Virus record (IMG/VR): IMGVR_UViG_2541047729_000013
From: a virus
Taxonomy: Duplodnaviria > Heunggongvirae > Uroviricota > Caudoviricetes
DNA: 41,685 bases
Strand: one strand, 5' to 3'
The first letter of the stretch is position 1; each line of letters opens with the position of its first letter. Shown one piece after another: positions 3,394-35,444 of the stretch. The position numbers and the translations under genes are program-made. The notes under the pieces were generated by a model, which saw only the letters and a list, made by a program, of their open reading frames with translations, did not search any database and was not told the DNA's origin.

Positions 3394-6300
3394 TTAACGT
3401 TCTTCCAGAGACTGAACCCGCTCTTTTATCTTATCCATTTCTCTGCGCTGCCATGCTGCCTCGATATAGAATAAGAGATCAGGTCTGACCCCCCATCTAG
3501 ATCCTGCTGGCGTTATTTCAACGCGCTCAATGATGTCTTCTATTACCATCACTGGATTATCATCCTCATCAACAATGATGCTCCCGTCATTATCAGTCAG
3601 CGGCATTTCCCTTTGGCCAGTAATGACGTCATCATATACTGCGGGATAATCGTCATAGCAAAGAAAGGCATAGCGGCATGTTGTGCTTTCTTCTTCCATG
3701 AGTCCGTGAGAAATAAGAACATCACGAAGTTGCTGCGCGATTACACCATGATGTATCCTCGCCCCTTCTTCCCCCTTTATAGCGACAGCGTTCAGCCATT
3801 TATAAGCGATATACCTGACGTCACCCCAGGCATCCAGCAATGCTTCGTCAGGAGAGACCGGCTCTGTCTTTAATGTTCCGTCACTGGTAACCACAGGATT
3901 GGAGCCAAGATAAACTGTCGAGAACCTGTTTCCCGGACCACCAAGAGCATTTACATTATCAAGATAAGGTTTAACATCTCCGTTCTCAAAAAGATGTTCG
4001 AGTGCGTTATATACCGCGCGACGTGGAGTACTGCTTCCGGAACCATGCAACGTTATCATTGCACCATCTGCTGAAGACGTTGTTTCACCGCCGCTAACGA
4101 TTAATCTCTGAGCGGTAACATCATCAGACGGTACTTTCTTCGCAATAATGGCGTAATTACCCTCAAGTTTGACTTCCGCGCGAACTTGTCCTGATGTACC
4201 TGCATGGACAGTCAGTGACTGGACGGCAACATCATCTGTGAAATCAACGGGTACAGGAACCGTCCTCACGCCTGACGTCGACATAAAAGTAGGAAGCGTT
4301 CTGTTAGGAGTGGCTCCGTAGACAAAATCCCTTGAAACAAATTCTTCCTGTTTAATTTTCACCCTGAAACAATACAAATCAGCCGGGTGACCATCGTGAA
4401 AATAAGGATATTTTCTGTTGTTATCCCCTATGCTCCATGGGTTTAGAAAGTCTTCCCCACCGAAAATGTAGTACAGCCAGTTGTCTTTGATACAAACTGA
4501 ACCAACACCAACCGCAGAGTTAACTATTCCGCCCTGATAAATCTGATCAGTAACATTAACCCACTCTACATTATCCAGACTCCACTCATTGACGTTAACT
4601 CTGGTCATAAATGTTCTTGGATAATTTCCTGCATAACGGTTATCAGGTTCTCCTCCTTCCCACTCACCAAATGCGCGCTCACTGCCAAAAATAATCAGCT
4701 CATCGCCAACTTTGGCAAAAGGAAGGTTTGAGTGATGAACATTATTTGGGAAGCGAAGAGAATTCCATGATGTACCTAAATCAGAGCTTCTGTGCAATGA
4801 ACTACCGGGTTGAGTACTTAATGTCCCCCTGGTCGTCAGATACAGAATGCCATCATAATATTTTACACATGGCTCAGATGCATTCGCCTCATATTCTGCA
4901 GGTATGCGTCTGCGAACAAAGCTACCAGGAGAACCGAAAGCATCAGAGAAATAGAGTATCCCAAGCTCGCGTGGACCAATATCACCATTATGGTAGCCAA
5001 CAGCAAAACTGTTATCGCTAATCGTCGCAAAACTGTGAATCTCAGTAACAGGAGTGCTTCCGTCAACAAAAGAAGGAATAGTTCCAAGACTGGTTTTTCT
5101 CCATGGTGACGAGTGAAATGATGTACCAAAACTCCAGTATCTACCCTCGTTATTCTGATCCACATCCTGGGTATTTTGCGTCGTAACTGTAAAAGTATTT
5201 TTATCAATAACAGTAGTCACCGTCATATTCCCGGTAACACCTGTAACACCAGAGTTTGAGAAGTTGACAAAATCACCAGCAAATAATCCGTGATCAGTAA
5301 TGCGAATATAAGCGACTTGCTGATTTGCTGCTTTCGTTATACCACCATAAACGCGAAGGCTGCGACTCATTGGGCGATCCCACAACTCTGCAACCTGCAG
5401 TTTATTTCCGCTCACGGTCCGCGTCTCAATTACAGCAAAAAGGCGATTTCTGACAACCCCCATACTCATGCAGTGATAGTTAACTGTGGGATAGTTTTCA
5501 TGTAAATCTGTAAGCCATTCCGGCGTTGTCCAGGTCTTCCCGTCATCTCCTGAGCGAACCCATGCAACATGGAGGTTATTTACACCATGGCGGTCTCCAG
5601 CCATAAAAGGCGCATAGATGACATTGTCATATACAAACGTTTTATCCTGCGTCCAGGCGTTGTACCACGGTGTATCTGTAATTTTAAATAACTCTCCCTG
5701 GATAAAATCTTCAGAAGCATAAAAAAGAGGCTGGCCCGGTATTCTCTCAAATAAAAAACGAGCATTTTTAAATCGACTGACATCCGGAAGAGTTGATACT
5801 TTAAAAGTAAGCCCTAATCCGTCAATTTTATAACCTGGAGATGAGGCTTCAAGGCACGCGCTTATTGCAGTGGAATCGTCATTTATACCATCACCAACAG
5901 CTCCAAAATCTTTGGGGCTAATAGCATCACGCATTTTATCCTGGAACGTTCGGTACACAGCCCCAGAACCATACTGAATAAACCAACCAAAACCACCAAC
6001 AACCCCGGAGATTGCAGCATCGACATAATTACGCATTGAGCGATTATTTACAGCGTCCTGCTCAAATGATGGATCTGCAAGGTTAGAAATTTTGTTTTGC
6101 TTTGCATCGTAATATTTTGCAAGCAAAGATGGTTTCATCAATGCACGTCTGAACCACCCAAAACATTGCTGGATCAGCATCGTCAGGTAGTCAAAGGCAT
6201 CTTCATGCACTTCGGGGAAAAATTTTCCCTGATTGCGAAGGTCTGTCTCCTGCACTACATCAAGCACACGATCTATCGTAATTCGCCATCCAGTAGCAAG

Positions 6301-6513
6301 CGGAGACGGAAGAACCACAGAACCGCCACTATAAGTGCCCGCCCCAGTTACCGTATAACCGGTATCCAGAACCAATTCTGTTACGTTTCCGTTCAGGTCA
6401 GACACCTGAACAACCAGGTCTGATTTTCTGAAAACTCGAAAAGTATACGGAAACGATGTCGTAACGCCGTTACCGGTGTATTCGTTGTGGTCAACTTCGG
6501 TTGAGACCGTCAT
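3394..6513 (-). CDS. Tailspike / tail fibre with sialidase-like beta-propeller and C-terminal intramolecular chaperone domain
   Basis: 1039 aa; N-terminus MTVSTEVDHNEYTGNGVTTSFPYTF typical of enterobacterial phage fibre adaptor domains; two Asp-box motifs (SGDDGKTW, SSDLGTSW); C-terminal segment ending ...REMDKIKERVQSLEER resembles the autoproteolytic chaperone of endosialidase-type tailspikes; RBS GGAGAT upstream. Confidence 0.8.
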   Translation of the reverse strand: MTVSTEVDHNEYTGNGVTTSFPYTFRVFRKSDLVVQVSDLNGNVTELVLDTGYTVTGAGTYSGGSVVLPSPLATGWRITIDRVLDVVQETDLRNQGKFFPEVHEDAFDYLTMLIQQCFGWFRRALMKPSLLAKYYDAKQNKISNLADPSFEQDAVNNRSMRNYVDAAISGVVGGFGWFIQYGSGAVYRTFQDKMRDAISPKDFGAVGDGINDDSTAISACLEASSPGYKIDGLGLTFKVSTLPDVSRFKNARFLFERIPGQPLFYASEDFIQGELFKITDTPWYNAWTQDKTFVYDNVIYAPFMAGDRHGVNNLHVAWVRSGDDGKTWTTPEWLTDLHENYPTVNYHCMSMGVVRNRLFAVIETRTVSGNKLQVAELWDRPMSRSLRVYGGITKAANQQVAYIRITDHGLFAGDFVNFSNSGVTGVTGNMTVTTVIDKNTFTVTTQNTQDVDQNNEGRYWSFGTSFHSSPWRKTSLGTIPSFVDGSTPVTEIHSFATISDNSFAVGYHNGDIGPRELGILYFSDAFGSPGSFVRRRIPAEYEANASEPCVKYYDGILYLTTRGTLSTQPGSSLHRSSDLGTSWNSLRFPNNVHHSNLPFAKVGDELIIFGSERAFGEWEGGEPDNRYAGNYPRTFMTRVNVNEWSLDNVEWVNVTDQIYQGGIVNSAVGVGSVCIKDNWLYYIFGGEDFLNPWSIGDNNRKYPYFHDGHPADLYCFRVKIKQEEFVSRDFVYGATPNRTLPTFMSTSGVRTVPVPVDFTDDVAVQSLTVHAGTSGQVRAEVKLEGNYAIIAKKVPSDDVTAQRLIVSGGETTSSADGAMITLHGSGSSTPRRAVYNALEHLFENGDVKPYLDNVNALGGPGNRFSTVYLGSNPVVTSDGTLKTEPVSPDEALLDAWGDVRYIAYKWLNAVAIKGEEGARIHHGVIAQQLRDVLISHGLMEEESTTCRYAFLCYDDYPAVYDDVITGQREMPLTDNDGSIIVDEDDNPVMVIEDIIERVEITPAGSRWGVRPDLLFYIEAAWQRREMDKIKERVQSLEER

Positions 6514-6669
6514 GTTAAATCTCCAGATAGTCGCAGCACCCGTTGCGCCGCATATCTGGTTATTCTATTACCTGGAAAACCACATATGGATAGAAAGGCT
6601 GTAAATACGAATAGATATTACCTTTCAGGTAATTTGCAAAACGTGCTGGATAGCAAACAAATTATTTGC

Positions 6670-6689
6670 TACTGTATAAATATACAGTT
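6670..6689 (+). promoter_or_regulatory. LexA (SOS) box overlapping a -10-like element
   Basis: TACTGTATAAATATACAGTT matches CTGT-N8-ACAG with AT-rich spacer, a near-consensus LexA operator, about 20 nt upstream of the RBS GGAGAA of the 6709 gene. Confidence 0.7.
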
Positions 6690-6708
6690 ATTGCATGGAG
6701 AAGATAAG

Positions 6709-6966
6709 ATGCAGCAGTATCACTATCCACTGGAAGACGGATTTACCGAAAGGATTCACACGCCGGGAGGCGTCAGGTCACTGGTGGAGGGATCGCACTT
6801 GATGAAATTACTCCGGGATCTCGATAAGGATGGATTTAATGTCGATGGCCCACTTGCCGAACTGACTGCACTGATTAACTACGTCACCAGCTCACAGATG
6901 TCTATGCAGGATCTGCAAACACATCTCGACTATTGTGCCGAACAATTACGAAAACAAACCCGGTAA
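6709..6966 (+). CDS. SOS-regulated small protein, paralogous to the C-terminal domain of the Bro-N protein at 8352-9047 (candidate antirepressor)
   Basis: 85 aa from internal ATG with RBS; about 45 percent identity by eye between IHTPGGVRSLVEGSHLMKLLRDLDKDGFNVDGPLAELT...QTH and Bro C-terminus IHSPSGVLGLTENSLLMNLLNQLQEDGHDVSGAAAELT...QTH; LexA box immediately upstream. Confidence 0.6.
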   Translation: MQQYHYPLEDGFTERIHTPGGVRSLVEGSHLMKLLRDLDKDGFNVDGPLAELTALINYVTSSQMSMQDLQTHLDYCAEQLRKQTR

Positions 6967-6990
6967 ATTTAAAGGCCGCAAGAGCGGCCA

Positions 6991-7497
6991 TTAACAGTCG
7001 TAAAATTCCGGGTCCCACAAACTTGCATCGCGCGGCATGGATTCTAAATTTTTCAGCCGCAAAATTCTGTCACACTCGACAAGAAGTTTTTGTTTTTGTT
7101 CGTCAATTTCTACTTTTTTGTGTGCTGGCTCATCCCAGTAATCCAGAAGAAACGCATGTCGCTCAGACGTTACAAGATAAATCACATACACATCACTGGT
7201 TGGTATTTTTTTATGCTTGTTGGTGGTCTTGTCTTTCTTCCCGGATGCCCAGTTTTTCCAGCATTGTTCCGTACCGCTCTCACCAAACTTGTCAGTATAG
7301 TTTCCGATGTTTACGTGAACGTGGCGTATGTGATATTCCAGCATCTCTTTCGGTGGATCCCGAAACAGAGTGTCCTTTCCGAAATCCTTATGATGACCGT
7401 AGCGCCAGTGATCTATGAACGCGTTTTTGATAGGTATTAGCTCAGGGTCCTTCCCAAAAATTCCAGGGTGAACCAACCCCTGGAATTTATTCAGCAT
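6991..7497 (-). CDS. YafO-like putative toxin (ribosome-dependent mRNA interferase family)
   Basis: Start set at internal ATG (MLNKFQ...), overlapping the upstream gene by about 11 nt; segments PGIFGKD, HIRHVHV and VYVIYLVTSERHAFLL resemble recalled YafO segments PDIFGRD, HIHLANEN and HLVYCQGAFDEQAWLL. Assignment is from memory and needs an HMM search. Confidence 0.4.
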   Translation of the reverse strand: MLNKFQGLVHPGIFGKDPELIPIKNAFIDHWRYGHHKDFGKDTLFRDPPKEMLEYHIRHVHVNIGNYTDKFGESGTEQCWKNWASGKKDKTTNKHKKIPTSDVYVIYLVTSERHAFLLDYWDEPAHKKVEIDEQKQKLLVECDRILRLKNLESMPRDASLWDPEFYDC

Positions 7498-7942
7498 CGT
7501 CGTAGAGCTCCTGAGCCATATCTTCGGCAGTGCGTGCAAACATCCTGCGCGAGATTGCATGAGATTTCTCGACGGACATCTTTGGGACCTCATGCATAAC
7601 ATTTTTGGGAGTTGTGTAATAGCCTATTACAATTTTCACACCTGACTTATGATTAATATCAGCATAATATACTTCTTGTTCAGACGTTTCACGACGAACA
7701 TAATCTGCCAGTTTTCCACATTTAAATTCCCCTCCCTGATGTTTTAAAATCTCCTCAACTGCACTATTTTCAGTGAAATACCGAATAAGAAATTTCTGTC
7801 CAGACTCTTCAGCATGAGGTATAACAGTATTATTGGAAGCCCGAACAATGGCCTTACTCAATATTTCATGGTCTTTATTTTTTTCTGATTTCCTCAAATG
7901 CTGCATTACTGTAGCTCTCTTCGTGTTCACGGGCACCCCCAA
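7487..7942 (-). CDS. Uncharacterised protein overlapping and upstream of the YafO-like gene (candidate antitoxin or partner)
   Basis: 139-151 aa depending on start (track TTG at 7942 or ATG near 7906); acidic C-terminus AQELYDDAE; no recognisable HTH. My reading of the printed sequence near 7858-7862 gave one extra nucleotide relative to the track frame; track coordinates are used. Confidence 0.45.
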   Translation of the reverse strand: MGVPVNTKRATVMQHLRKSEKNKDHEILSKAIVRASNNTVIPHAEESGQKFLIRYFTENSAVEEILKHQGGEFKCGKLADYVRRETSEQEVYYADINHKSGVKIVIGYYTTPKNVMHEVPKMSVEKSHAISRRMFARTAEDMAQELYDDAE

Positions 7943-8038
7943 CTACCTCTAGGGTAAACATTCTATCGAAAGTATACGCATACTGGCAAAAAAATAGGCA
8001 GGTATTTTCTGAAATGGGATCAATCAAACCACATAGGG

Positions 8039-8083
8039 TTGAAATAACGTGAGTTATGCATTTATTATTACCTTTGCGGTAAA
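8039..8083 (+). promoter_or_regulatory. Candidate promoter (TTGAAA-N17-TTATTA) with overlapping ATTACC-N5-GGTAAA operator
   Basis: -35/-10-like hexamers with 17-nt spacing; operator palindrome at 8067-8083 abuts the -10; CCACATAGGG box at 8029-8038 is shared with the modules at 6580 and 26358. Confidence 0.45.
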
Positions 8084-8108: not shown

Positions 8109-8195
8109 TAGTAATCGGGCATTGGAAAAATCCAGTGCCGGGATTGGCGTCCCGGATTACTAAAAGGCGCATTCACCGCGCAAGCGGTTTTTTTA
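8109..8195 (+). ncRNA. Candidate small structured RNA / leader riboregulator ending in an intrinsic terminator
   Basis: Closing stem TAGTAATC (8109-8116) / GATTACTA (8155-8162) encloses two hairpins (GGCATTGGA-AAAA-TCCAGTGCC and GGGA-TTGGCG-TCCC); followed by ACCGC-GCAA-GCGGT plus T7 run (8175-8195). No ORF; 150 nt upstream of the Bro-N start. Confidence 0.3.
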
Positions 8196-8351
8196 TGCGT
8201 ATAGCACGGCCACATTCGTATTATGGTGGGCTGTGTGGGGGCACCGAAAGGTGCGCCGGGTCCTTTTAGCCGGTTACGCCAACCCTGCACAGTTCACCAC
8301 CAACCGATTGGCGTCGGTAGTGGTGATTAACCAGACTAAAAGGTAACCACT

Positions 8352-9047
8352 ATGACAGCTACAAAAAGCACGTCCATTTTTTCTTTCGAATCCCAAGCCG
8401 ATATACGGGTAATCGTCATTAATGGTGAGCCATGGTTTATCGCTTCAGATGTTTGTCGGGCTATAGGCATAGCAAATCATCGAGATGCTGTTCGAAAACT
8501 TGATGATGATGAGAAGGGCGTCGCTTCAACCGACACCCCTGGCGGTGAGCAAGAATCGATCATCATCTCCGAGTCAGGCCTCTACACACTGATCCTCCGC
8601 TGCCGCGACGCAGTGACACCAGGCACTATCCCCTACCGCTTTCGTAAATGGGTTACAGGTGAGGTTCTTCCTCAGATCCGCCGCACCGGAAGTTACATTA
8701 AAAACTCGCTCCCGCAGGAAGAACGCATAAAGATGGTTGCCGACCAGGTAGCCAACGCCACAGCATCAGCAGTGATGCAGGCAATGAAGATAGAGAACAA
8801 AACCTACAGTGCCCCACTGAAGCCCGGCTACCGCAGCCTGATTCATTCGCCGTCTGGTGTTCTCGGCCTGACGGAGAACTCACTGCTGATGAATCTGCTG
8901 AACCAGTTACAGGAAGACGGGCACGACGTATCGGGCGCGGCGGCGGAGCTGACCACCATGTTCTGCTACATCGTCGGTGTGAGCAAGTGCCTGCGTGATA
9001 TCCAGACGCACGCGGAGTACATCAACGACAAGGCTGGGTTCTTCTGA
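8352..9047 (+). CDS. Bro-N domain antirepressor-like protein
   Basis: N-terminal hallmark IRVIVINGEPWFIASDVCRAIGIANHRDAVRKLDDDEKGV; C-terminal about 65 aa paralogous to the 6709-6966 protein; RBS AAGGT upstream. Confidence 0.75.
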   Translation: MTATKSTSIFSFESQADIRVIVINGEPWFIASDVCRAIGIANHRDAVRKLDDDEKGVASTDTPGGEQESIIISESGLYTLILRCRDAVTPGTIPYRFRKWVTGEVLPQIRRTGSYIKNSLPQEERIKMVADQVANATASAVMQAMKIENKTYSAPLKPGYRSLIHSPSGVLGLTENSLLMNLLNQLQEDGHDVSGAAAELTTMFCYIVGVSKCLRDIQTHAEYINDKAGFF

Positions 9048-9187: not shown

Positions 9188-9820
9188 ATGAAAACAAATA
9201 CAACAAGAAAAGCGATGCCATACATTATCCCAGAAGCAGATTTCGACAGAAAACTGAACATGTCTGAGAAGAACACTAGTCACACCGAAAGCTACTTAGC
9301 GAAAGGTGTGGTTGATTTCGTTCTTCCGGGATTCACAACACCTTATGGTTATCGCCTTGTAAAATCTTGTAATGGCGATCATTACAGAATGATTACTACC
9401 AGCGATACTCCAGAAACGGTGTATGCGGTTAAGTTAATCTTTCGGGAAGATATCGTCGAAGCTAAAAGAACATGTACGCAGATCATGGTATGGCGTACGC
9501 CTAATGTTATTCATGACCGTGCTGTTCATGGTTTGCCTCAGATTTTTTTTCAGTTCTTCCTAGAGCAATATGCGATCGTTGTATCTGATGAGCAACAAAC
9601 AATCGATGGGAGAAGATTCTGGGAAAGAATGATTTCTTGGGCTATAAACACCCCGGGATATAATGTATACGTTTCAGATGGCTCTGAAGAAGATAGACCT
9701 CTTAGCTTCATGACATCATGGGATGATTTCTATAGCCAGTGGGCTGATTTCTGTTGGGGCAGTGATAAAGATGTGCATACCCACAGACTACTGGTTATAA
9801 GCAAAGATAAACTGCATTAA
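9188..9820 (+). CDS. Hypothetical protein (210 aa), accessory/moron gene
   Basis: Strong RBS GGAGG; followed by a clean intrinsic terminator; AT-rich codon usage unlike the structural genes; no motif I can assign. Confidence 0.6.
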   Translation: MKTNTTRKAMPYIIPEADFDRKLNMSEKNTSHTESYLAKGVVDFVLPGFTTPYGYRLVKSCNGDHYRMITTSDTPETVYAVKLIFREDIVEAKRTCTQIMVWRTPNVIHDRAVHGLPQIFFQFFLEQYAIVVSDEQQTIDGRRFWERMISWAINTPGYNVYVSDGSEEDRPLSFMTSWDDFYSQWADFCWGSDKDVHTHRLLVISKDKLH

Positions 9821-26344: not shown

Positions 26345-26424
26345 TATTACCAATTTAACCACATATGATTTATTTATCGTAGATAGTTGACATTTAACGC
26401 ACAAATTATTACCTTTCAGGTAAC
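26345..26424 (+). promoter_or_regulatory. Repeated promoter/operator module (ATTACC-N7-CCACATATG ... TTGACA ... ATTACCTTTCAGGTAAC)
   Basis: Near-identical copy of the module at 6567-6633 (operator core ATTACCTTTCAGGTAA identical); faces the tRNA-Arg gene 320 nt downstream. Confidence 0.5.
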
Positions 26425-26745: not shown

Positions 26746-26822
26746 GTGGCATTAGCTCAGTTGGACAGAGCAACCGCCTTCTAAGCGGTTGGTCGCAGGT
26801 TCGAATCCTGCATGCCACGCCA
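26746..26822 (+). tRNA. tRNA-Arg (anticodon UCU), phage-encoded
   Basis: Hand-folded cloverleaf: acceptor GTGGCAT/ATGCCAC, D-stem GCTC/GAGC, anticodon stem ACCGC/GCGGT with loop CTTCTAA (anticodon TCT), T-arm GCAGG-TTCGAAT-CCTGC, discriminator G, encoded CCA. Confidence 0.85.
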
Positions 26823-30555: not shown

Positions 30556-31209
30556 TCAATTAACCTCCTGCGGCGGTTCCGGTAGAGGCATCCAGTACAA
30601 GGCGTTCCCTAACCACGATAAAGTGCCGTCGCTCAACTCCACGTATTCCCCTTGTACCTGTCCTGCCATATACTCGCCGTGCTTTGAATAAATTAAAATC
30701 CAATCATCTTGAGCGGGCATTCGCTCACTACAGCTTATCCAACCATCCGGAGTTACCGGATAGTTGCCCGACAGCTCGTTCAACTTGTAAGTTTGGCTTA
30801 CAGGTTCGGCTTCCAGTTCTGCAATGCGCTTCTCTGCAGCTTCCAGCTCAACGCGCAGCTTCCCTACCGTTAGCGCAATTTCCTCGTTCTCCTGGTCGCG
30901 GCGTTTGATGTATTGCTGGTTTCTTTCCCGTTCATCCAGCAGCGCCAGCACGGTTTCTGGTCCGGTCAGAAATTTGAAGGCGTTGAGCGCATCAATATCC
31001 ACACCGTAATCCTTAAGTTCCTGTTCACTTAACAAATCATCATCAACTGGCAACATTAACAGGCGTTCCATTGCCGGAATTGCACGTTCTGCCGCCTCAC
31101 GCAGTGCCTGATAGTCAATCTTGTTCACTGGTTGTCTCCCTTGCAGGGCTTTCGAATGTATCAAACTCAAACAACTTAACCACGTCATCAAACAGGACAT
31201 AATCGCCAT
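30556..31209 (-). CDS. Ead/Ea22-like protein with DUF551-like C-terminus
   Basis: C-terminal YWMPLPEPP motif; coiled-coil middle; start uncertain because of overlap with the upstream gene. Confidence 0.5.
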   Translation of the reverse strand: MAIMSCLMTWLSCLSLIHSKALQGRQPVNKIDYQALREAAERAIPAMERLLMLPVDDDLLSEQELKDYGVDIDALNAFKFLTGPETVLALLDERERNQQYIKRRDQENEEIALTVGKLRVELEAAEKRIAELEAEPVSQTYKLNELSGNYPVTPDGWISCSERMPAQDDWILIYSKHGEYMAGQVQGEYVELSDGTLSWLGNALYWMPLPEPPQEVN

Positions 31210-31420
31210 CAGGATCTTCAGTCATGTCAGCGCCACACTCCTGACCGAACGAGTCACAACCATCCATATCAAGCTCGTATCGCTTCAGGTTTGCGATATT
31301 TGATAAATTCAGCGCCAGTACAGCTAGGGCATAAACCTCTTCGGCGGTATACCCTGCGCCATGCCCATACATTTCAATGCGGGATATGATTTCTTCTACC
31401 CGTTGTTTTGTGATCGTCAT
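31115..31420 (-). CDS. Hypothetical acidic early protein
   Basis: 101-aa ORF in the early-right operon, overlapping stop/start with neighbours. Confidence 0.5.
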   Translation of the reverse strand: MTITKQRVEEIISRIEMYGHGAGYTAEEVYALAVLALNLSNIANLKRYELDMDGCDSFGQECGADMTEDPDGDYVLFDDVVKLFEFDTFESPARETTSEQD

Positions 31421-31896
31421 TTTTGCTCACCTCCATGTTCTTCCAGAAAAATACGCATAGCCTCAAGCATCTCTTCGGTGTCATACGGAGACAGCTTGTC
31501 ACGCAGGATGTGTTCAATGCTGTTAATGAACTTTCGGATTGCTTTGCGTTCAATTTCAGTCAGGAAAGCATCGGTGGCTGGGGTGTCTGATTGCAGAGAC
31601 TTTGCGCGATAGTCATTCCACCCTCTTGCATACATGGGATTAACTCGCACTCCATCTTTTACGCAATATGCCTGCCCTCCACGGTTGATAACCTTGATTT
31701 CGTCCATAGCGCCAGACTTCAGCCCCGCATTCTCTGCCGCCAGCGCATTAGCACGCACCAGTTGCACTTCCAGTTGCGTTGCCAAATCGCTGATCAGCTT
31801 TGCCACACTGCGCATATCAACGGCACCACATTCTGCTTTCAGTTCCGAAGCCATCTCATGCCCGGCGGCAACTAACCCTTTGATATTACTTTCCAT
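31417..31896 (-). CDS. Hypothetical early protein
   Basis: 159-aa ORF in the nin/ead-like region downstream of the replication genes. Confidence 0.5.
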   Translation of the reverse strand: MESNIKGLVAAGHEMASELKAECGAVDMRSVAKLISDLATQLEVQLVRANALAAENAGLKSGAMDEIKVINRGGQAYCVKDGVRVNPMYARGWNDYRAKSLQSDTPATDAFLTEIERKAIRKFINSIEHILRDKLSPYDTEEMLEAMRIFLEEHGGEQK

Positions 31897-31957
31897 CTTT
31901 ACCCTCGCTTATCCACATAACTTATTGATTACATTGATAACTAAAAAGATCGTCGAT

Positions 31958-32302
31958 TCAGAACTCTTCGATGTTCCAGCCACCACCTGCTTTCTTTGGT
32001 TTAACCGTTACCCCGATGATTCGGAACGGATACTGATCTGCGGCGACTTTGGTTTTCACCCTGGCGTCGTCGGTCCAGAAACCTTTCACTTCGTGCAGTT
32101 CCATCTCTCCGGTGGCGAGCATCACAGCGAAATCTGGCGTATAGAACGTGTTGTCAGCTAACCGCAGCTTGATACCCTCGAATCGATACTAGGCGATTTC
32201 CCCTGCACGTTTACGCAGCTCAAGGTGCTGGCAATACGCAGATTCAGTTTTGTTCATCTGGCCTGTTTTGAGTCGACCAAGAGCCTGTATCTGTTTTCTC
32301 AT
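31958..32302 (-). pseudogene. DUF1064-like phage gene interrupted by an in-frame amber codon
   Basis: Minus-strand ATG at 32302 reads 37 codons, then TAG at 32191-32189, then continues in the same frame for 76 codons (YRFEGIKLRLADNTFYTPDF...HEVKGFW...) to TGA at 31958; absent from the ORF track because of the internal stop. Confidence 0.5.
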
Positions 32303-34339: not shown

Positions 34340-34570
34340 TCATGAGTAGAAGAAGTATGCCAGTTCTGCTTTTGAGCGCAGCCATTGTCTTGTTTTACAG
34401 GCTTTAAAAAGCCCATTCATCAATACCTTACCTGGCATTTTGCGCTTACCTGTTAAGTGAGTCTGGATATAGTGACTCGTCGTTCCGGCTTCCTGTGCGA
34501 AGGCTTCACGCTCATCCGGAGTAAGTGCAAGCCAGTGCTTTTTGAAATCGAAATGTCCGTTATCGCTCAT
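34340..34570 (-). CDS. Cro-like HTH regulator
   Basis: 76 aa, divergent from the repressor gene across the operator region; HTH-like segment REAFAQEAGTTSHYIQTHLTGKR. Confidence 0.55.
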   Translation of the reverse strand: MSDNGHFDFKKHWLALTPDEREAFAQEAGTTSHYIQTHLTGKRKMPGKVLMNGLFKACKTRQWLRSKAELAYFFYS

Positions 34571-34610: not shown

Positions 34611-34670
34611 CCATAAGGTAACAAAAATCAAGGATAGTTACCTATGGGGTGCATTTACCTGTTGGGTAAT
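34611..34670. promoter_or_regulatory. Immunity-region operator cluster (OR-like), three ATTACC-N5-GGTAAT-type sites
   Basis: TTCACCCATAAGGTAAC, TTACCTATGGGGTGC and TTTACCTGTTGGGTAAT within the 154-bp repressor/cro-like intergenic region. Confidence 0.6.
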
Positions 34671-34724: not shown

Positions 34725-35309
34725 ATGAAAAGTATCCAGGACGTCCGCAGGCAAAATCTCAACGACTTGATCGACCGTGAATTCAATGGTGTTCAGACGC
34801 GGATGGCTGAAAAACTTGGAACTCAGGCAAATCTGGTAAACCGCTGGGCTCTTGGCAAGAAGGTTATCGGCGACCAGGTTGCACGAAAAATTGAAGCTGC
34901 CGCCAATAAACCCCGTAACTGGCTTGATATTGATCGCTCGCTTTCTCAGGAGGGTTTTCAGCCTGTCGGCCCGAGCGATATAGGTCAGCTGGCGGCTCAC
35001 AACCTGGAACGCTGGATGAGCGAAAGCCGCGACCTTTCAACGCAGGGAAAACTACACCGCGCATCCGGCGTCGCCCAGGTGACAATCAGCCGCCTGTTAA
35101 ACAATGAGGTCAGCGTTTCCATTTCCACCCTGGAGAATGTTGCATCCGCATTCGGGCGTCACGGCTATGAATTACTGATTCACCCGCACGACCCTGCGAC
35201 CATCAACTATGATCGCTCGCGCTACGCATTGTTACCCGAAACCGAGAAAGCAAAGATCGAAAGTTACATTGAATTTGTCATCAACCAGAACGAAAAAAAC
35301 AAACAATAA
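34725..35309 (+). CDS. CI-like prophage repressor without peptidase S24 domain
   Basis: N-terminal XRE-type HTH (TRMAEKLGTQANLVNRWALGKK) and a second HTH-like segment; no Ser-Lys autocleavage motifs; divergent from the cro-like gene; followed by a terminator. Confidence 0.7.
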   Translation: MKSIQDVRRQNLNDLIDREFNGVQTRMAEKLGTQANLVNRWALGKKVIGDQVARKIEAAANKPRNWLDIDRSLSQEGFQPVGPSDIGQLAAHNLERWMSESRDLSTQGKLHRASGVAQVTISRLLNNEVSVSISTLENVASAFGRHGYELLIHPHDPATINYDRSRYALLPETEKAKIESYIEFVINQNEKNKQ

Positions 35310-35365: not shown

Positions 35366-35444
35366 ATTACCTAACGGGTAATTTTTTTAACTCATATCTA
35401 TTGACATCAAACCAGATACGCATAATCATTACCTCAACGGTAAC
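35366..35444 (+). promoter_or_regulatory. OL-like operators and early-left promoter
   Basis: ATTACCTAACGGGTAAT (35366-35382), TTGACA at 35401-35406, ATTACCTCAACGGTAAC (35428-35444) and a further GGTAA half-site, upstream of the first early-left ORF. Confidence 0.55.

Follow-up and report, generated by a model that had tools for sequence, protein, structure and literature searches.

The 41,685-nt stretch of DNA that we analysed, in the following called the window, carries a prophage of the epsilon15/phiV10 type (Uetakevirus) from the host E. coli. Within the Uetakevirus late region, a gene for a protein of 85 amino acids, here termed ant, is arranged divergently from the gene for the tailspike, a K1-specific endosialidase, and the same layout is found in phiV10, SPC32H, epsilon15, Tyrion and BUCT554 as well as in three Klebsiella phages. 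Directly 3' of ant follows a GC-rich hairpin, scored as an intrinsic terminator of the minus-strand genes that run towards ant, and the epsilon15 record has a terminator annotated at the equivalent place. A gene for a Bro-N protein and the gene for the prophage repressor, rep, are also encoded in the window (Table 1). Three cargo open reading frames (6991–7602, 7487–7942 and 9188–9820) found no match in PADLOC, Pfam or NCBIfam; the two minus-strand cargo genes at 6991–7942 are absent from phage ZX5.

Table 1. Positions of genes, RNAs and regulatory elements in the window
Feature	Position	Strand	Remarks
Predicted Rep operator	6617..6633		perfect ATTACC-N5-GGTAAT palindrome, flanked by the candidate promoters of the divergent tailspike and ant genes; conserved in 9 relatives
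Candidate ant promoter	6647..6675	+	−35 TGGATA 6647–6652, 17-nt spacer, TG-extended −10 TACTGT 6670–6675
LexA (SOS) box	6670..6689		TACTGTATAAATATACAGTT; perfect CTGT-N8-ACAG cores, AT-only spacer
ant Shine-Dalgarno sequence	6697..6700	+	GGAG, 8 nt upstream of ATG; invariant in 9 relatives
ant	6709..6966	+	85-aa antirepressor, very probable SPC32H Ant ortholog; 88% identity to SPC32H_020; PDB 5D50_E
Hairpin, terminator-like	6974..6989		GGCCGCTCTTGCGGCC
Promoter-like site	8039–8068	+	TTGAAA-18-TATTAT, 10/12 match
Rep-operator-like palindrome	8067–8083		ATTACCTTTGCGGTAAA; over −10 and start region of the promoter-like site
isrK-family sRNA with own terminator	8119..8194	+	Rfam RF01394, 74.5 bits (gathering score 50)
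C4-family antisense RNA	8219..8304	+	Rfam RF01695, 77.7 bits (gathering score 45)
Downstream C4 target pair	8308..8343	+	TTGGCGT 8308–8314, CTAAAAGG 8336–8343
Bro-N::Ant-like antirepressor gene	8352..9047	+	231 aa; Bro-N residues 17–107 (8400–8672), Ant-like residues ~150–226 (8799–9029)
cro-like gene	34340–34570	-	matches PHROG 35, transcriptional repressor family
Predicted Rep-operator palindrome	34654..34670		between rep and divergent cro-like gene
rep	34725..35309	+	194-aa prophage repressor of SPC32H Rep type; 5D50_A; no S24 domain
Two predicted Rep-operator palindromes	35366–35382 and 35428–35444		downstream of rep, ahead of early genes

The ant gene starts with the ATG at 6709 (not 6710), and its stop codon ends at 6966. 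In many database entries a longer open reading frame of 126 amino acids (6586–6966) is called. We rejected it as an over-extended start and gene-caller artefact, because the additional part, 6586–6708, contains a repressor operator, the LexA box and the divergent promoter of the tailspike gene, and relatives differ in it by indels of 1 and 2 nt. The 85-aa product is 88% identical to that of the gene annotated as ant in SPC32H and SPC32N and matches chain E of PDB entry 5D50, 'Anti-repressor protein', with an E-value of 4e-47 over residues 2–84; antirepressors of the SPC32H Ant type are small proteins of about 86 amino acids. No Pfam or NCBIfam model matches Ant above threshold; a Pfam match to DUF724 (17.6 bits against a cutoff of 38.4) was dismissed as chance. 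The corresponding PHROG, 450, is listed with 'unknown function', and in the about 530 of 5,426 complete E. coli genomes that contain the gene, its product is labelled 'hypothetical protein' in all sampled rows. Ant and the Rep family occur together: of the 36 phage records in which Rep is matched over its full length, 35 contain Ant as well.

A reading of the locus made from the sequence alone (in the following the sequence-only reading) had placed a near-consensus SOS box over the promoter of this gene. The box itself is certain. It deviates at two positions from the 20-mer consensus TACTGTATATATATACAGTA, whereas no other 20-mer in the two strands of the whole 41.7-kb window has fewer than seven mismatches, which makes the box unique. 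It lies 19 nt upstream of the 85-aa gene, and in nine diverged phages the orthologous gene is preceded by the box at the corresponding position, even though the relatives are otherwise only 73% identical per column; in the Klebsiella relatives the left arm reads ATGT instead of CTGT. SPC32H and its variant SPC32N differ by two bases across a 5.2-kb locus, and one of these differences is located in the core of the homologous box, where ACAG is changed to AAAG in SPC32N. A LexA box mutation of the SPC32N type reportedly renders Ant synthesis constitutive, and the difference between the two phages fits this report.

Overlap of the box with the promoter is plausible, the promoter having been assigned from a weak match. 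A generic sigma-70 scan returned no site of at least 9/12 at the LexA box, and the candidate listed in Table 1 was retrieved by a relaxed, conservation-filtered scan, with a match of only 7/12 plus the TG extension. It is the sole candidate that keeps its position in six of the nine relatives, its −10 hexamer is identical with the left arm of the LexA box, and we infer that it serves ant. Two further sites, TTGCAA-18-CAAATT and TATACA-18-TAAGAT, were rejected since their positions are not conserved; with the latter, the transcription start would also fall inside the ribosome-binding site. The predicted Rep operator ends 13 bp upstream of the candidate −35 element.

The repressor is a full-length homolog of chain A of 5D50, 'Repressor' (E 4e-42 over residues 1–190). 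It is identical to Rep of phiV10 and ZX5 and shares 42% of its residues with Rep of SPC32H. Ant is reported to dock on the C-terminal half of SPC32H Rep, and by our own count on the alignment the C-terminal halves of the two proteins are about 39% identical. A Pfam search with Rep returned HTH-type matches only and no Peptidase_S24, just as the sequence-only reading had claimed a repressor without an S24 autocleavage domain; the C-terminal half matches HTH_3 and the Rep oligomerisation domain of 5D4Z/5D50. The operator palindrome occurs 15 times in the window with two mismatches or fewer, compared with 1.1 copies expected, and the epsilon15 record annotates the same palindrome as a repressor-binding site, including the position equivalent to 6617–6633. 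Five copies flank rep in SPC32H, and the operator layout around rep is the same in epsilon15 and SPC32H. The phiV10-type and the SPC32H-type Rep thus share the palindrome, and the putative recognition helix NLVNRW is unchanged between the two proteins.

The Bro-N gene is separated from ant by 1386 bp, close to the 1.4 kb given before. Its product carries an N-terminal Bro-N domain (Pfam PF02498, residues 17–107, E 2e-21, 76.7 bits) and belongs to PHROG 130, 'anti-repressor Ant'. Its C-terminus is related to the small protein: residues 2–75 of Ant align without gaps to residues 150–223 of the Bro-N protein with 31 of 74 positions identical (42%, E 8e-16), so that the similarity extends over 74 residues and not merely the 60 noted in the sequence-only reading, and the same C-terminus matches 5D50_E with an E-value of 1e-13. 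A match of the linker to PDB 7OYC (E 0.007) was dismissed as chance. The Bro-N protein is 100% identical to ORF4 of phage ZX5, and the Rep proteins and small Ant proteins of window and ZX5 are likewise identical. Overexpression of ZX5 ORF4 lowered prophage titres from 10^9 to 10^6 and led to lower lysogeny (PMC9782041); by analogy, the same phenotype would be expected in the prophage of the window. The ZX5 study, the only experimental account of an E. coli phage with this ant gene, offers no mechanism for ORF4 and says nothing of its Ant-like C-terminal domain, of a LexA-controlled small gene or of the isrK/C4 leader; the small ant gene is nowhere mentioned.

No LexA box precedes the Bro-N gene (the 41.7-kb window was scanned on both strands). 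Instead, it has an elaborate leader, in which a promoter-like site is overlapped by a Rep-operator-like palindrome, both of them conserved in ZX5, phiV10, Tyrion and a Klebsiella phage. The isrK-family RNA directly downstream carries decoy copies of both C4 target sites, TTGGCGT at 8144–8150 and CTAAAAGG at 8160–8167, and the second target pair covers, with its copy at 8336–8343, the ribosome-binding site of the Bro-N gene. The antisense segments of C4 are CCUUUUAG (8262–8269), complementary to 8160–8167 and 8336–8343, and ACGCCAA (8276–8282), complementary to 8144–8150 and 8308–8314. C4 and both target copies show three-way covariation in seven phages representing four specificity types, the b-site ends 7–9 nt before the start codon in all seven, and isrK and C4 are present only in those relatives that carry the Bro-N gene. 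No orf45/icd-like reading frame that terminates in the ATGA at the start of the Bro-N gene was found in that frame; an open reading frame at 8233–8346 (GTG start, 37 aa) ends 5 nt before the Bro-N ATG and is named 'ash family protein' in the ZX5 annotation.

This arrangement is reminiscent of established antirepressor operons. The immI operon of P1 and P7 is said to have the order c4-icd-ant. The isrK-orf45-anrP locus of Gifsy-1 consists of a promoter, the IsrK sRNA with a leaky terminator, a C4-type processed RNA and the antirepressor gene (PMC4825925), and the position of isrK in the window, between the promoter-like site and the antirepressor gene, corresponds to that layout. As in Gifsy-1 and P1 immI, each C4 target is present twice, once upstream and once downstream, and it is the downstream one that covers a ribosome-binding site. 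The window differs in that the apparent target of C4 is the ribosome-binding site of the Bro-N gene itself, in that there is no clear coupled upstream reading frame of the orf45/icd type, and in that the antirepressor has a C-terminal domain of the SPC32H Ant type and a promoter with a Rep-type operator. The identity with ZX5 ORF4, the lack of a LexA box and the isrK/C4 leader with its palindrome all agree with the earlier proposal of the Bro-N protein as a second antirepressor responding to a different input.

The closest described counterpart of ant and rep is the pair of SPC32H, in which Ant synthesis depends on LexA (Kim & Ryu 2013, J Virol 87:11775, cited in PMC7380047) and the Rep tetramer is broken up by a tetramer of Ant that binds two Rep dimers (Kim et al. 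2016, PNAS 113:E2480, cited in PMC9638917); structures of the two proteins are deposited as PDB 5D50 and 5D4Z. Shared traits are the orthologous Ant, the genus Uetakevirus, the position divergent from the tailspike gene, the placement of the LexA box, the S24-less Rep family and the operator palindrome. Distinguishing traits of the window are its divergent Rep, the E. coli host and the extra Bro-N::Ant-like paralog with isrK/C4, which SPC32H lacks. The central claim of the sequence-only reading, a small LexA-controlled antirepressor directed against a non-cleavable repressor, matches what is cited as experimentally established for SPC32H, with an 88% identical Ant and a full-length Rep homolog. 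That reading had drawn its comparison with Gifsy-type phages and with Tum of coliphage 186. The logic is the same, since Tum and the Gifsy proteins GfoA/GfhA (PMC3121763) likewise combine a small antirepressor under a LexA box with a non-cleavable repressor inactivated by protein–protein contact, as we suppose by analogy for Ant; the closest known relative, however, is SPC32H Ant instead. No relation of Ant to Tum or GfoA was detectable with Pfam and NCBIfam models, and the only PDB match was 5D50_E. SPC32H Ant is said to be structurally distinct from antirepressors of the Tum and Gifsy type. Tum and the Gifsy antirepressors are thus probably functional analogues of Ant and not members of its family.

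Taken together, the 85-aa gene is very probably ant, the SOS-controlled antirepressor gene of an epsilon15/phiV10-like prophage and the ortholog of SPC32H ant. What the analysis shows directly are sequence features, homologies, conservation and RNA covariation. In the lysogen, a dimer of host LexA would occupy the box over the −10 and start region of the ant promoter, and because of this overlap ant would be silent. Rep, unable to cleave itself, would repress the lytic genes through its ATTACC-N5-GGTAAT operators. Upon DNA damage, activated RecA would provoke self-cleavage of LexA and ant would be transcribed; Ant would then bind Rep by protein–protein contact and disassemble the DNA-bound Rep tetramer, and lytic transcription would start as a consequence. 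By analogy with SPC32H, LexA control and Ant–Rep binding are thus likely also in the prophage of the window; the Ant–Rep interaction is carried over by inference, since Rep is only 42% identical to its counterpart although Ant is 88% identical. The Bro-N antirepressor would stand outside LexA control, with the Rep operator in its promoter, C4 on its ribosome-binding site and the isrK decoys as its own devices, and would most likely reinforce derepression once Rep fails or act when the phage infects an immune cell.

The different degrees of conservation of Ant and Rep also leave room for explanations in which SOS-induced Ant does not inactivate Rep directly. Ant could assemble into mixed oligomers together with the Bro-N antirepressor, thereby switching that protein on or off. 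Oligomer contacts shared by the two proteins are conceivable, as 14 residues are invariant in stand-alone and fused forms, the C-terminus of the Bro-N protein is a paralog of Ant, and SPC32H Ant is described as a tetramer in the work cited above. Still, we consider this explanation very improbable. SPC32H, epsilon15, BUCT554 and BUCT711 all hold Ant but lack the Bro-N gene, therefore Ant must work without a Bro-N protein there, and in phiV10 the Bro-N gene is frameshifted while ant is intact. Just as improbable is the idea that ant is a conserved leftover in the E. coli lineage, blind to the phiV10-type Rep, and that induction proceeds via the Bro-N antirepressor or another route. Such a view could draw on the same disparity between Rep and Ant and on the fact that the anti-repressor phenotype in ZX5 was seen with ORF4 alone (PMC9782041), but in a leftover one would hardly expect the gene, its ribosome-binding site and the LexA box to be both intact and conserved, as they are in about 530 complete genomes of E. 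coli and all the phage relatives. Moreover, with no LexA box at the Bro-N gene, ant is the only visible SOS input, and both types of Rep share the operator palindrome and the unchanged NLVNRW motif.

The box, too, could be read differently, namely as a chance AT-rich inverted repeat or as a site for a phage regulator, in which case expression of ant would be constitutive or belong to the lytic programme. The ATGT in the left arm of the Klebsiella relatives would be compatible with this. The low number of mismatches compared with any other site in 41.7 kb, the position held among otherwise strongly diverged relatives, and the fact that SPC32H and SPC32N differ in the locus at just two bases, one of them in the box, all speak against it, and of the explanations discussed here we regard this one as the most improbable. 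LexA control of a direct antirepressor of Rep remains the reading that we prefer.

The domain represented by Ant is not restricted to the small protein. An exhaustive profile search (a word-indexed search with the C-terminal domain of the Bro-N protein gave mostly fragments) showed that it is a C-terminal module shuffled among proteins with at least five kinds of N-terminal domain, including Bro-N, AntA, Rha, ORF6N and P22_AR_N. Fourteen residues do not vary between the stand-alone and the fused forms: Y4, H17, P19, G21, L25, S29, L35, D41, G42, V45, E51, Y58, T71 and H72. In phage TL-2011b, the Rep of which is 98.5% identical to that of the window, an Arc-like gene is followed by a P22_AR_N antirepressor, an order that resembles P22 immI (mnt-arc-ant), and the C-terminus of this antirepressor is an Ant-like module with 89% identity to the C-terminal domain of the Bro-N protein. 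The window contains only two copies of the Ant domain and does not have the Arc-like/P22_AR_N cassette.

It is quite possible, if not quite probable, that the Ant fold is a portable Rep-binding module through which a single Rep integrates several inputs for induction and anti-immunity. In phages of the Rep family, the module of about 80 residues would then be used in three ways: as a stand-alone protein controlled by a LexA box, attached to Bro-N with isrK/C4 and a Rep operator in control, and, in TL-2011b, attached to P22_AR_N with an Arc-like repressor as regulator. Outside these phages the module follows AntA, Rha and ORF6N domains. This reading includes a feed-forward loop, in which the SOS response would lead to Ant synthesis, Rep would leave its operators and the isrK promoter, presumably controlled by Rep, would be derepressed; IsrK decoys would then titrate C4, the Bro-N::Ant protein would be made and lytic growth would be locked in. 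If the reading holds, the conservation of Ant (88%) in the face of the divergence of Rep (42%) predicts that prophages of the group from Salmonella and from E. coli would cross-induce each other.

The core finding is a rediscovery, because the closest known relative is SPC32H Ant itself; it was already published for this ortholog, which is 88% identical and solved at atomic resolution, and the identification of ant in the window changes nothing that is known. Its practical value is one of annotation, given the 'hypothetical protein' label in the sampled E. coli rows, the missing Pfam/NCBIfam model and a PHROG of 'unknown function'. Modestly new is the observation that one C-terminal module is combined with at least five N-terminal domains and that a second copy occurs here under C4/IsrK control. 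The module picture also supplies a mechanistic hypothesis for ORF4 of ZX5 and points to the prophage as a tractable system for studying how one repressor integrates several induction signals.

The product of the 85-codon gene, ant, proved to correspond to a known antirepressor. A tblastn search with the protein retrieved 35 phage records. All belong to the epsilon15/phiV10-like group, podophages in the genus Uetakevirus, which the region itself also matches. The orthologs from the Salmonella phages SPC32H and SPC32N are annotated as 'ant: anti-repressor protein' and are 88% identical to the window protein, which also matches the 'Anti-repressor protein' in PDB entry 5D50 (chain E, E 4e-47). 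The sequence-only reading, which had proposed a small LexA-controlled antirepressor at this place, is thereby borne out, and every sequence element that it named was confirmed. In two papers, Ant is described as being produced upon LexA self-cleavage and as inhibiting the repressor via protein-protein interaction (PMC7380047, citing Kim & Ryu 2013), and the SPC32H repressor Rep as a tetramer on DNA that is broken when tetrameric Ant associates with two Rep dimers (PMC9638917). The system is already known and the finding is therefore a correct rediscovery.

The LexA box upstream of ant, TACTGTATAAATATACAGTT, has perfect CTGT-N8-ACAG cores around an AT-only spacer and departs from the E. coli LexA-box consensus, TACTGTATATATATACAGTA, at two positions, both outside the cores, so that its description as near-consensus holds. 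When both strands of the 41,685-bp window were scanned with the full 20-mer, the next-best match had seven mismatches, and the box is therefore unique in the window; the degenerate core pattern is not enriched there (17 matches with at most one mismatch versus 14.8 expected). SPC32H and SPC32N reportedly differ by two nucleotides, one of which is said to lie within a LexA site overlapping the ant promoter and to render Ant production constitutive. Across the 5,249-bp locus, exactly two differences separate the deposited sequences of these phages, one of which turns the ACAG of the box core into AAAG.

The intergenic region between tailspike and ant was aligned for nine phages (the window, phiV10, SPC32H, epsilon15, Tyrion, BUCT554 and three Klebsiella phages). 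Column identity averages 73%, and LexA box, GGAG and start codon are conserved. In the Klebsiella phages the left arm of the box reads ATGT, not CTGT, and ant may there respond to SOS less strongly or in another way. The start codon, originally placed one base too far at 6710, is the ATG at 6709, 19 bases 3' of the box. An extended ORF of 126 aa, reported by many gene callers, is excluded by 1- and 2-nt indels among the relatives within 6586-6708. A generic promoter scan found no site over the LexA box; a relaxed scan of the nine sequences yielded one candidate that stays in place in the six relatives other than the Klebsiella phages. The left arm of the box doubles as its -10 hexamer, which makes the claimed overlap of box and promoter plausible, to the extent that a 7/12 match allows, and agrees with the arrangement reported for SPC32H.

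Features of the ant, Bro-N and rep regions (window coordinates unless stated otherwise)
Feature	Position	Strand	Characteristics
Tailspike, K1 endosialidase	3394-6513	-	PDB 3GVL/1V0E, residues 204-875, E = 0
Candidate tailspike promoter	-35, 6590 to 6585; -10, 6567 to 6562	-	TCCATA or TTCATA, 17 nt, TAGAAT; 9/9 relatives
Candidate ant promoter	6647-6652; 6670-6675	+	TGGATA, 17 nt, TG-n-TACTGT; relaxed scan, 7/12 match
LexA box	6670-6689		20-mer
GGAG before ant	6697-6700	+	
ant	6709-6966		85 codons
Two cargo ORFs	6991-7942	-	about 168 and 151 aa; PHROG 1651, 9503, function unknown
Promoter-like site before Bro-N gene	8039-8068		TTGAAA-18-TATTAT; promoter scan
Operator palindrome over -10/start region	8067-8083		
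isrK-family sRNA with terminator	8119-8194	+	74.5 bits, above Rfam gathering score
C4-family antisense RNA	8219-8304	+	77.7 bits, above Rfam gathering score
37-codon ORF	8233-8346; 1965-2078 in L012	+	GTG start; 'ash family protein' in ZX5
Bro-N gene	8352-9047		231 aa
rep	34725-35309		194 aa
Palindrome ATTACC-N5-GGTAAT	2728, 6617, 7942, 8067, 9113, 14373, 26408, 29546, 29564, 32305, 32367, 34269, 34654, 35366, 35428		17 bp

Rep gave only HTH-type matches in Pfam, where Peptidase_S24 was absent, in keeping with the earlier statement that the repressor lacks an S24 domain, and it matched the 'Repressor' of 5D50 (chain A) over residues 1-190 (E 4e-42) as well as the related entry 5D4Z. The repressors of phiV10 and ZX5 have the same sequence (100% identity), but SPC32H Rep shares only 42% of its residues; hand counting on the latter alignment gave about 55% for the N-terminal domain and 39% for the C-terminal half. 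The putative recognition helix, NLVNRW by our own assignment, is unchanged in SPC32H Rep. The palindrome ATTACC-N5-GGTAAT occurs in 15 copies in the window (at most two mismatches) versus 1.1 expected, among them copies on both sides of rep (34654, 35366 and 35428), upstream of ant (6617-6633) and, in the interval from ant to the Bro-N gene, at two divergent promoter-like sites (7942 and 8067). Five copies surround rep in SPC32H, and in the epsilon15 record the same palindrome is annotated as repressor-binding sites, including upstream of the ant ortholog gp19. It is probably the Rep operator, and its recurrence around rep in SPC32H together with the epsilon15 annotation makes one operator appear common to both Rep lineages, which are 42% identical to each other. 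The copy upstream of ant sits between the candidate promoters for ant and for the minus-strand tailspike gene, 13 bp and 26 bp upstream of their respective -35 elements, and a half-site ATTACC (6567-6572) adjoins the -10 of the latter. A tRNA-Arg gene (anticodon TCT, 26746-26822, plus strand) was seen in the terminase/portal region, with an operator-like palindrome 340 bp upstream, at 26408.

The best explanation, and a very probable one given homology, conservation and the literature on the orthologs, is that the SPC32H mechanism has been carried over to the window prophage. LexA would keep ant off, SOS induction would lift this block, and Ant would bind Rep and strip it from the ATTACC-N5-GGTAAT operators. 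The weakest link is an asymmetry: the E. coli and Salmonella lineages share 88% identity in Ant and only 42% in Rep. Either Ant meets a conserved surface of Rep, or a shift in specificity is hidden from sequence comparison; the asymmetry suggests a conserved docking surface with possible cross-induction, or else mosaic exchange of the immunity region.

The Bro-N protein combines a Pfam Bro-N domain at its N-terminus (E 2e-21) with an Ant-like C-terminus. Its residues 150-223 align with Ant without gaps (31/74 identical, E 8e-16), a similarity that had been noticed over about 60 residues without database searches, and its C-terminus also matches 5D50 chain E (E 1e-13) and PHROG 450, the family of small Ant. 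The Bro C-terminal domain turns up in 34 records of the phage collection, none of them outside the group carrying this Rep family. From 1.84 billion representative proteins, a profile built on stand-alone and fused forms retrieved only 65 at E 1e-3 or better: stand-alone proteins of 80-95 aa and proteins of 183-319 aa with the domain at the C-terminus, behind Bro-N, AntA, Phage_pRha or ORF6N. Fourteen residues are invariant in all stand-alone and fused forms. TL-2011b encodes a third Ant-domain protein (31060-32244), in which P22_AR_N precedes an Ant-like C-terminus with 89% identity to the window Bro C-terminal domain. Its gene comes after one for an Arc-like repressor, forming a cassette in the style of P22 immI, and TL-2011b Rep is 98.5% identical to that of the window. 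HEMP4 likewise has three Ant-domain copies. We read the Ant-like domain as a repressor-specific effector module with interchangeable N-terminal domains and control cassettes. Domain shuffling among phage Bro/KilA/Ant regulators is known and is extended by this module, a description of which was not found in the literature searched.

Phage vB_EcoP_ZX5 encodes the same protein as the Bro-N gene (ORF4, 100% identity), and its Rep and small Ant likewise do not differ from those of the window. Overexpression of ORF4 reduced prophage titres from 10^9 to 10^6 and overexpression of Rep abolished free phage; no mechanism was given, and LexA, SPC32H and the small gene were not mentioned (PMC9782041). 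The 20-mer scan of the window found no LexA box upstream of the Bro-N gene, the leader of which contains an isrK-family sRNA and a C4-family antisense RNA. These three observations support the earlier view of the Bro-N protein as a second antirepressor on another input. The C4 segments CCUUUUAG and ACGCCAA have complementary copies inside isrK (8160-8167 and 8144-8150) and again in the leader (8336-8343 and 8308-8314), where the copy at 8336-8343 covers AAGG 8 nt 5' of the Bro-N ATG. Such duplicated targets around C4 resemble the a1b1-c4-a2b2 layout reported for P1 immI. The region also resembles the isrK-orf45-anrP layout of Gifsy-1, shown there experimentally (PMC4825925).

The isrK/C4 module is present in seven phages and absent from phages without the Bro-N gene. 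It comes in four C4 specificity types, within each of which all three partners shift together (for example, CCUUUGUAG with CUACAAAGG or CUACAGAGG, CCGUUUAG with CUAAACGG or CUAAGCGG, AGACCAA with UUGGUCU, and GUCUCAA with UUGAGAC), and in all seven the start codon follows the end of the b-site by 7-9 nt; EC.W1-9, the closest relative across this region, differs in C4 type from the window. This three-way covariation is good evidence for a working RNA switch. By analogy with P1 and Gifsy-1, C4 would block translation and IsrK would lift the block as a decoy. The 37-codon ORF, which runs across part of the C4 RNA and stops 5 nt short of the Bro-N ATG, may serve for coupling in the manner of orf45/icd or may be a spurious call on conserved RNA. 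We give at best even odds to the Bro-N paralog being an antirepressor that is repressed by Rep, gated by C4 and used for reinforcement or against immunity. In phiV10 the Bro-N antirepressor gene (3876-4555) is split into ORFs of 194 and 29 aa, apparently by a frameshift within the Ant-like domain, and the small ant is intact.

Between ant and the isrK promoter sit two cargo ORFs without Pfam or PADLOC match; EC.W1-9 has them, and phiV10, ZX5 and SPC32H lack them. Their promoter-like site (7989 to 7960), with an operator-like palindrome (7942-7958) immediately behind it, mirrors the isrK promoter. The tailspike has a C-terminal chaperone domain (3GW6) and an epsilon15-type N-terminus, and its endosialidase part predicts that the phage is K1-capsule specific, which fits the match of 6560-6990 to the E. 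coli APEC O18 chromosome at 100% identity.

About 530 of 5,426 complete E. coli genomes, roughly a tenth, carry the ant locus, and every sampled E. coli row covering the gene labels it 'hypothetical protein'; small Ant has no Pfam or NCBIfam model, and PHROG 450 is tagged 'unknown function'. Two results are of value. The first is this annotation gap, a gene that is 'hypothetical' in E. coli and without a curated family model. The second is the picture of a module serving two or three inputs, which is testable and suggests a mechanism for ZX5 ORF4. If Ant does dock on a conserved Rep surface, prophages of Salmonella and E. coli would be expected to induce one another.
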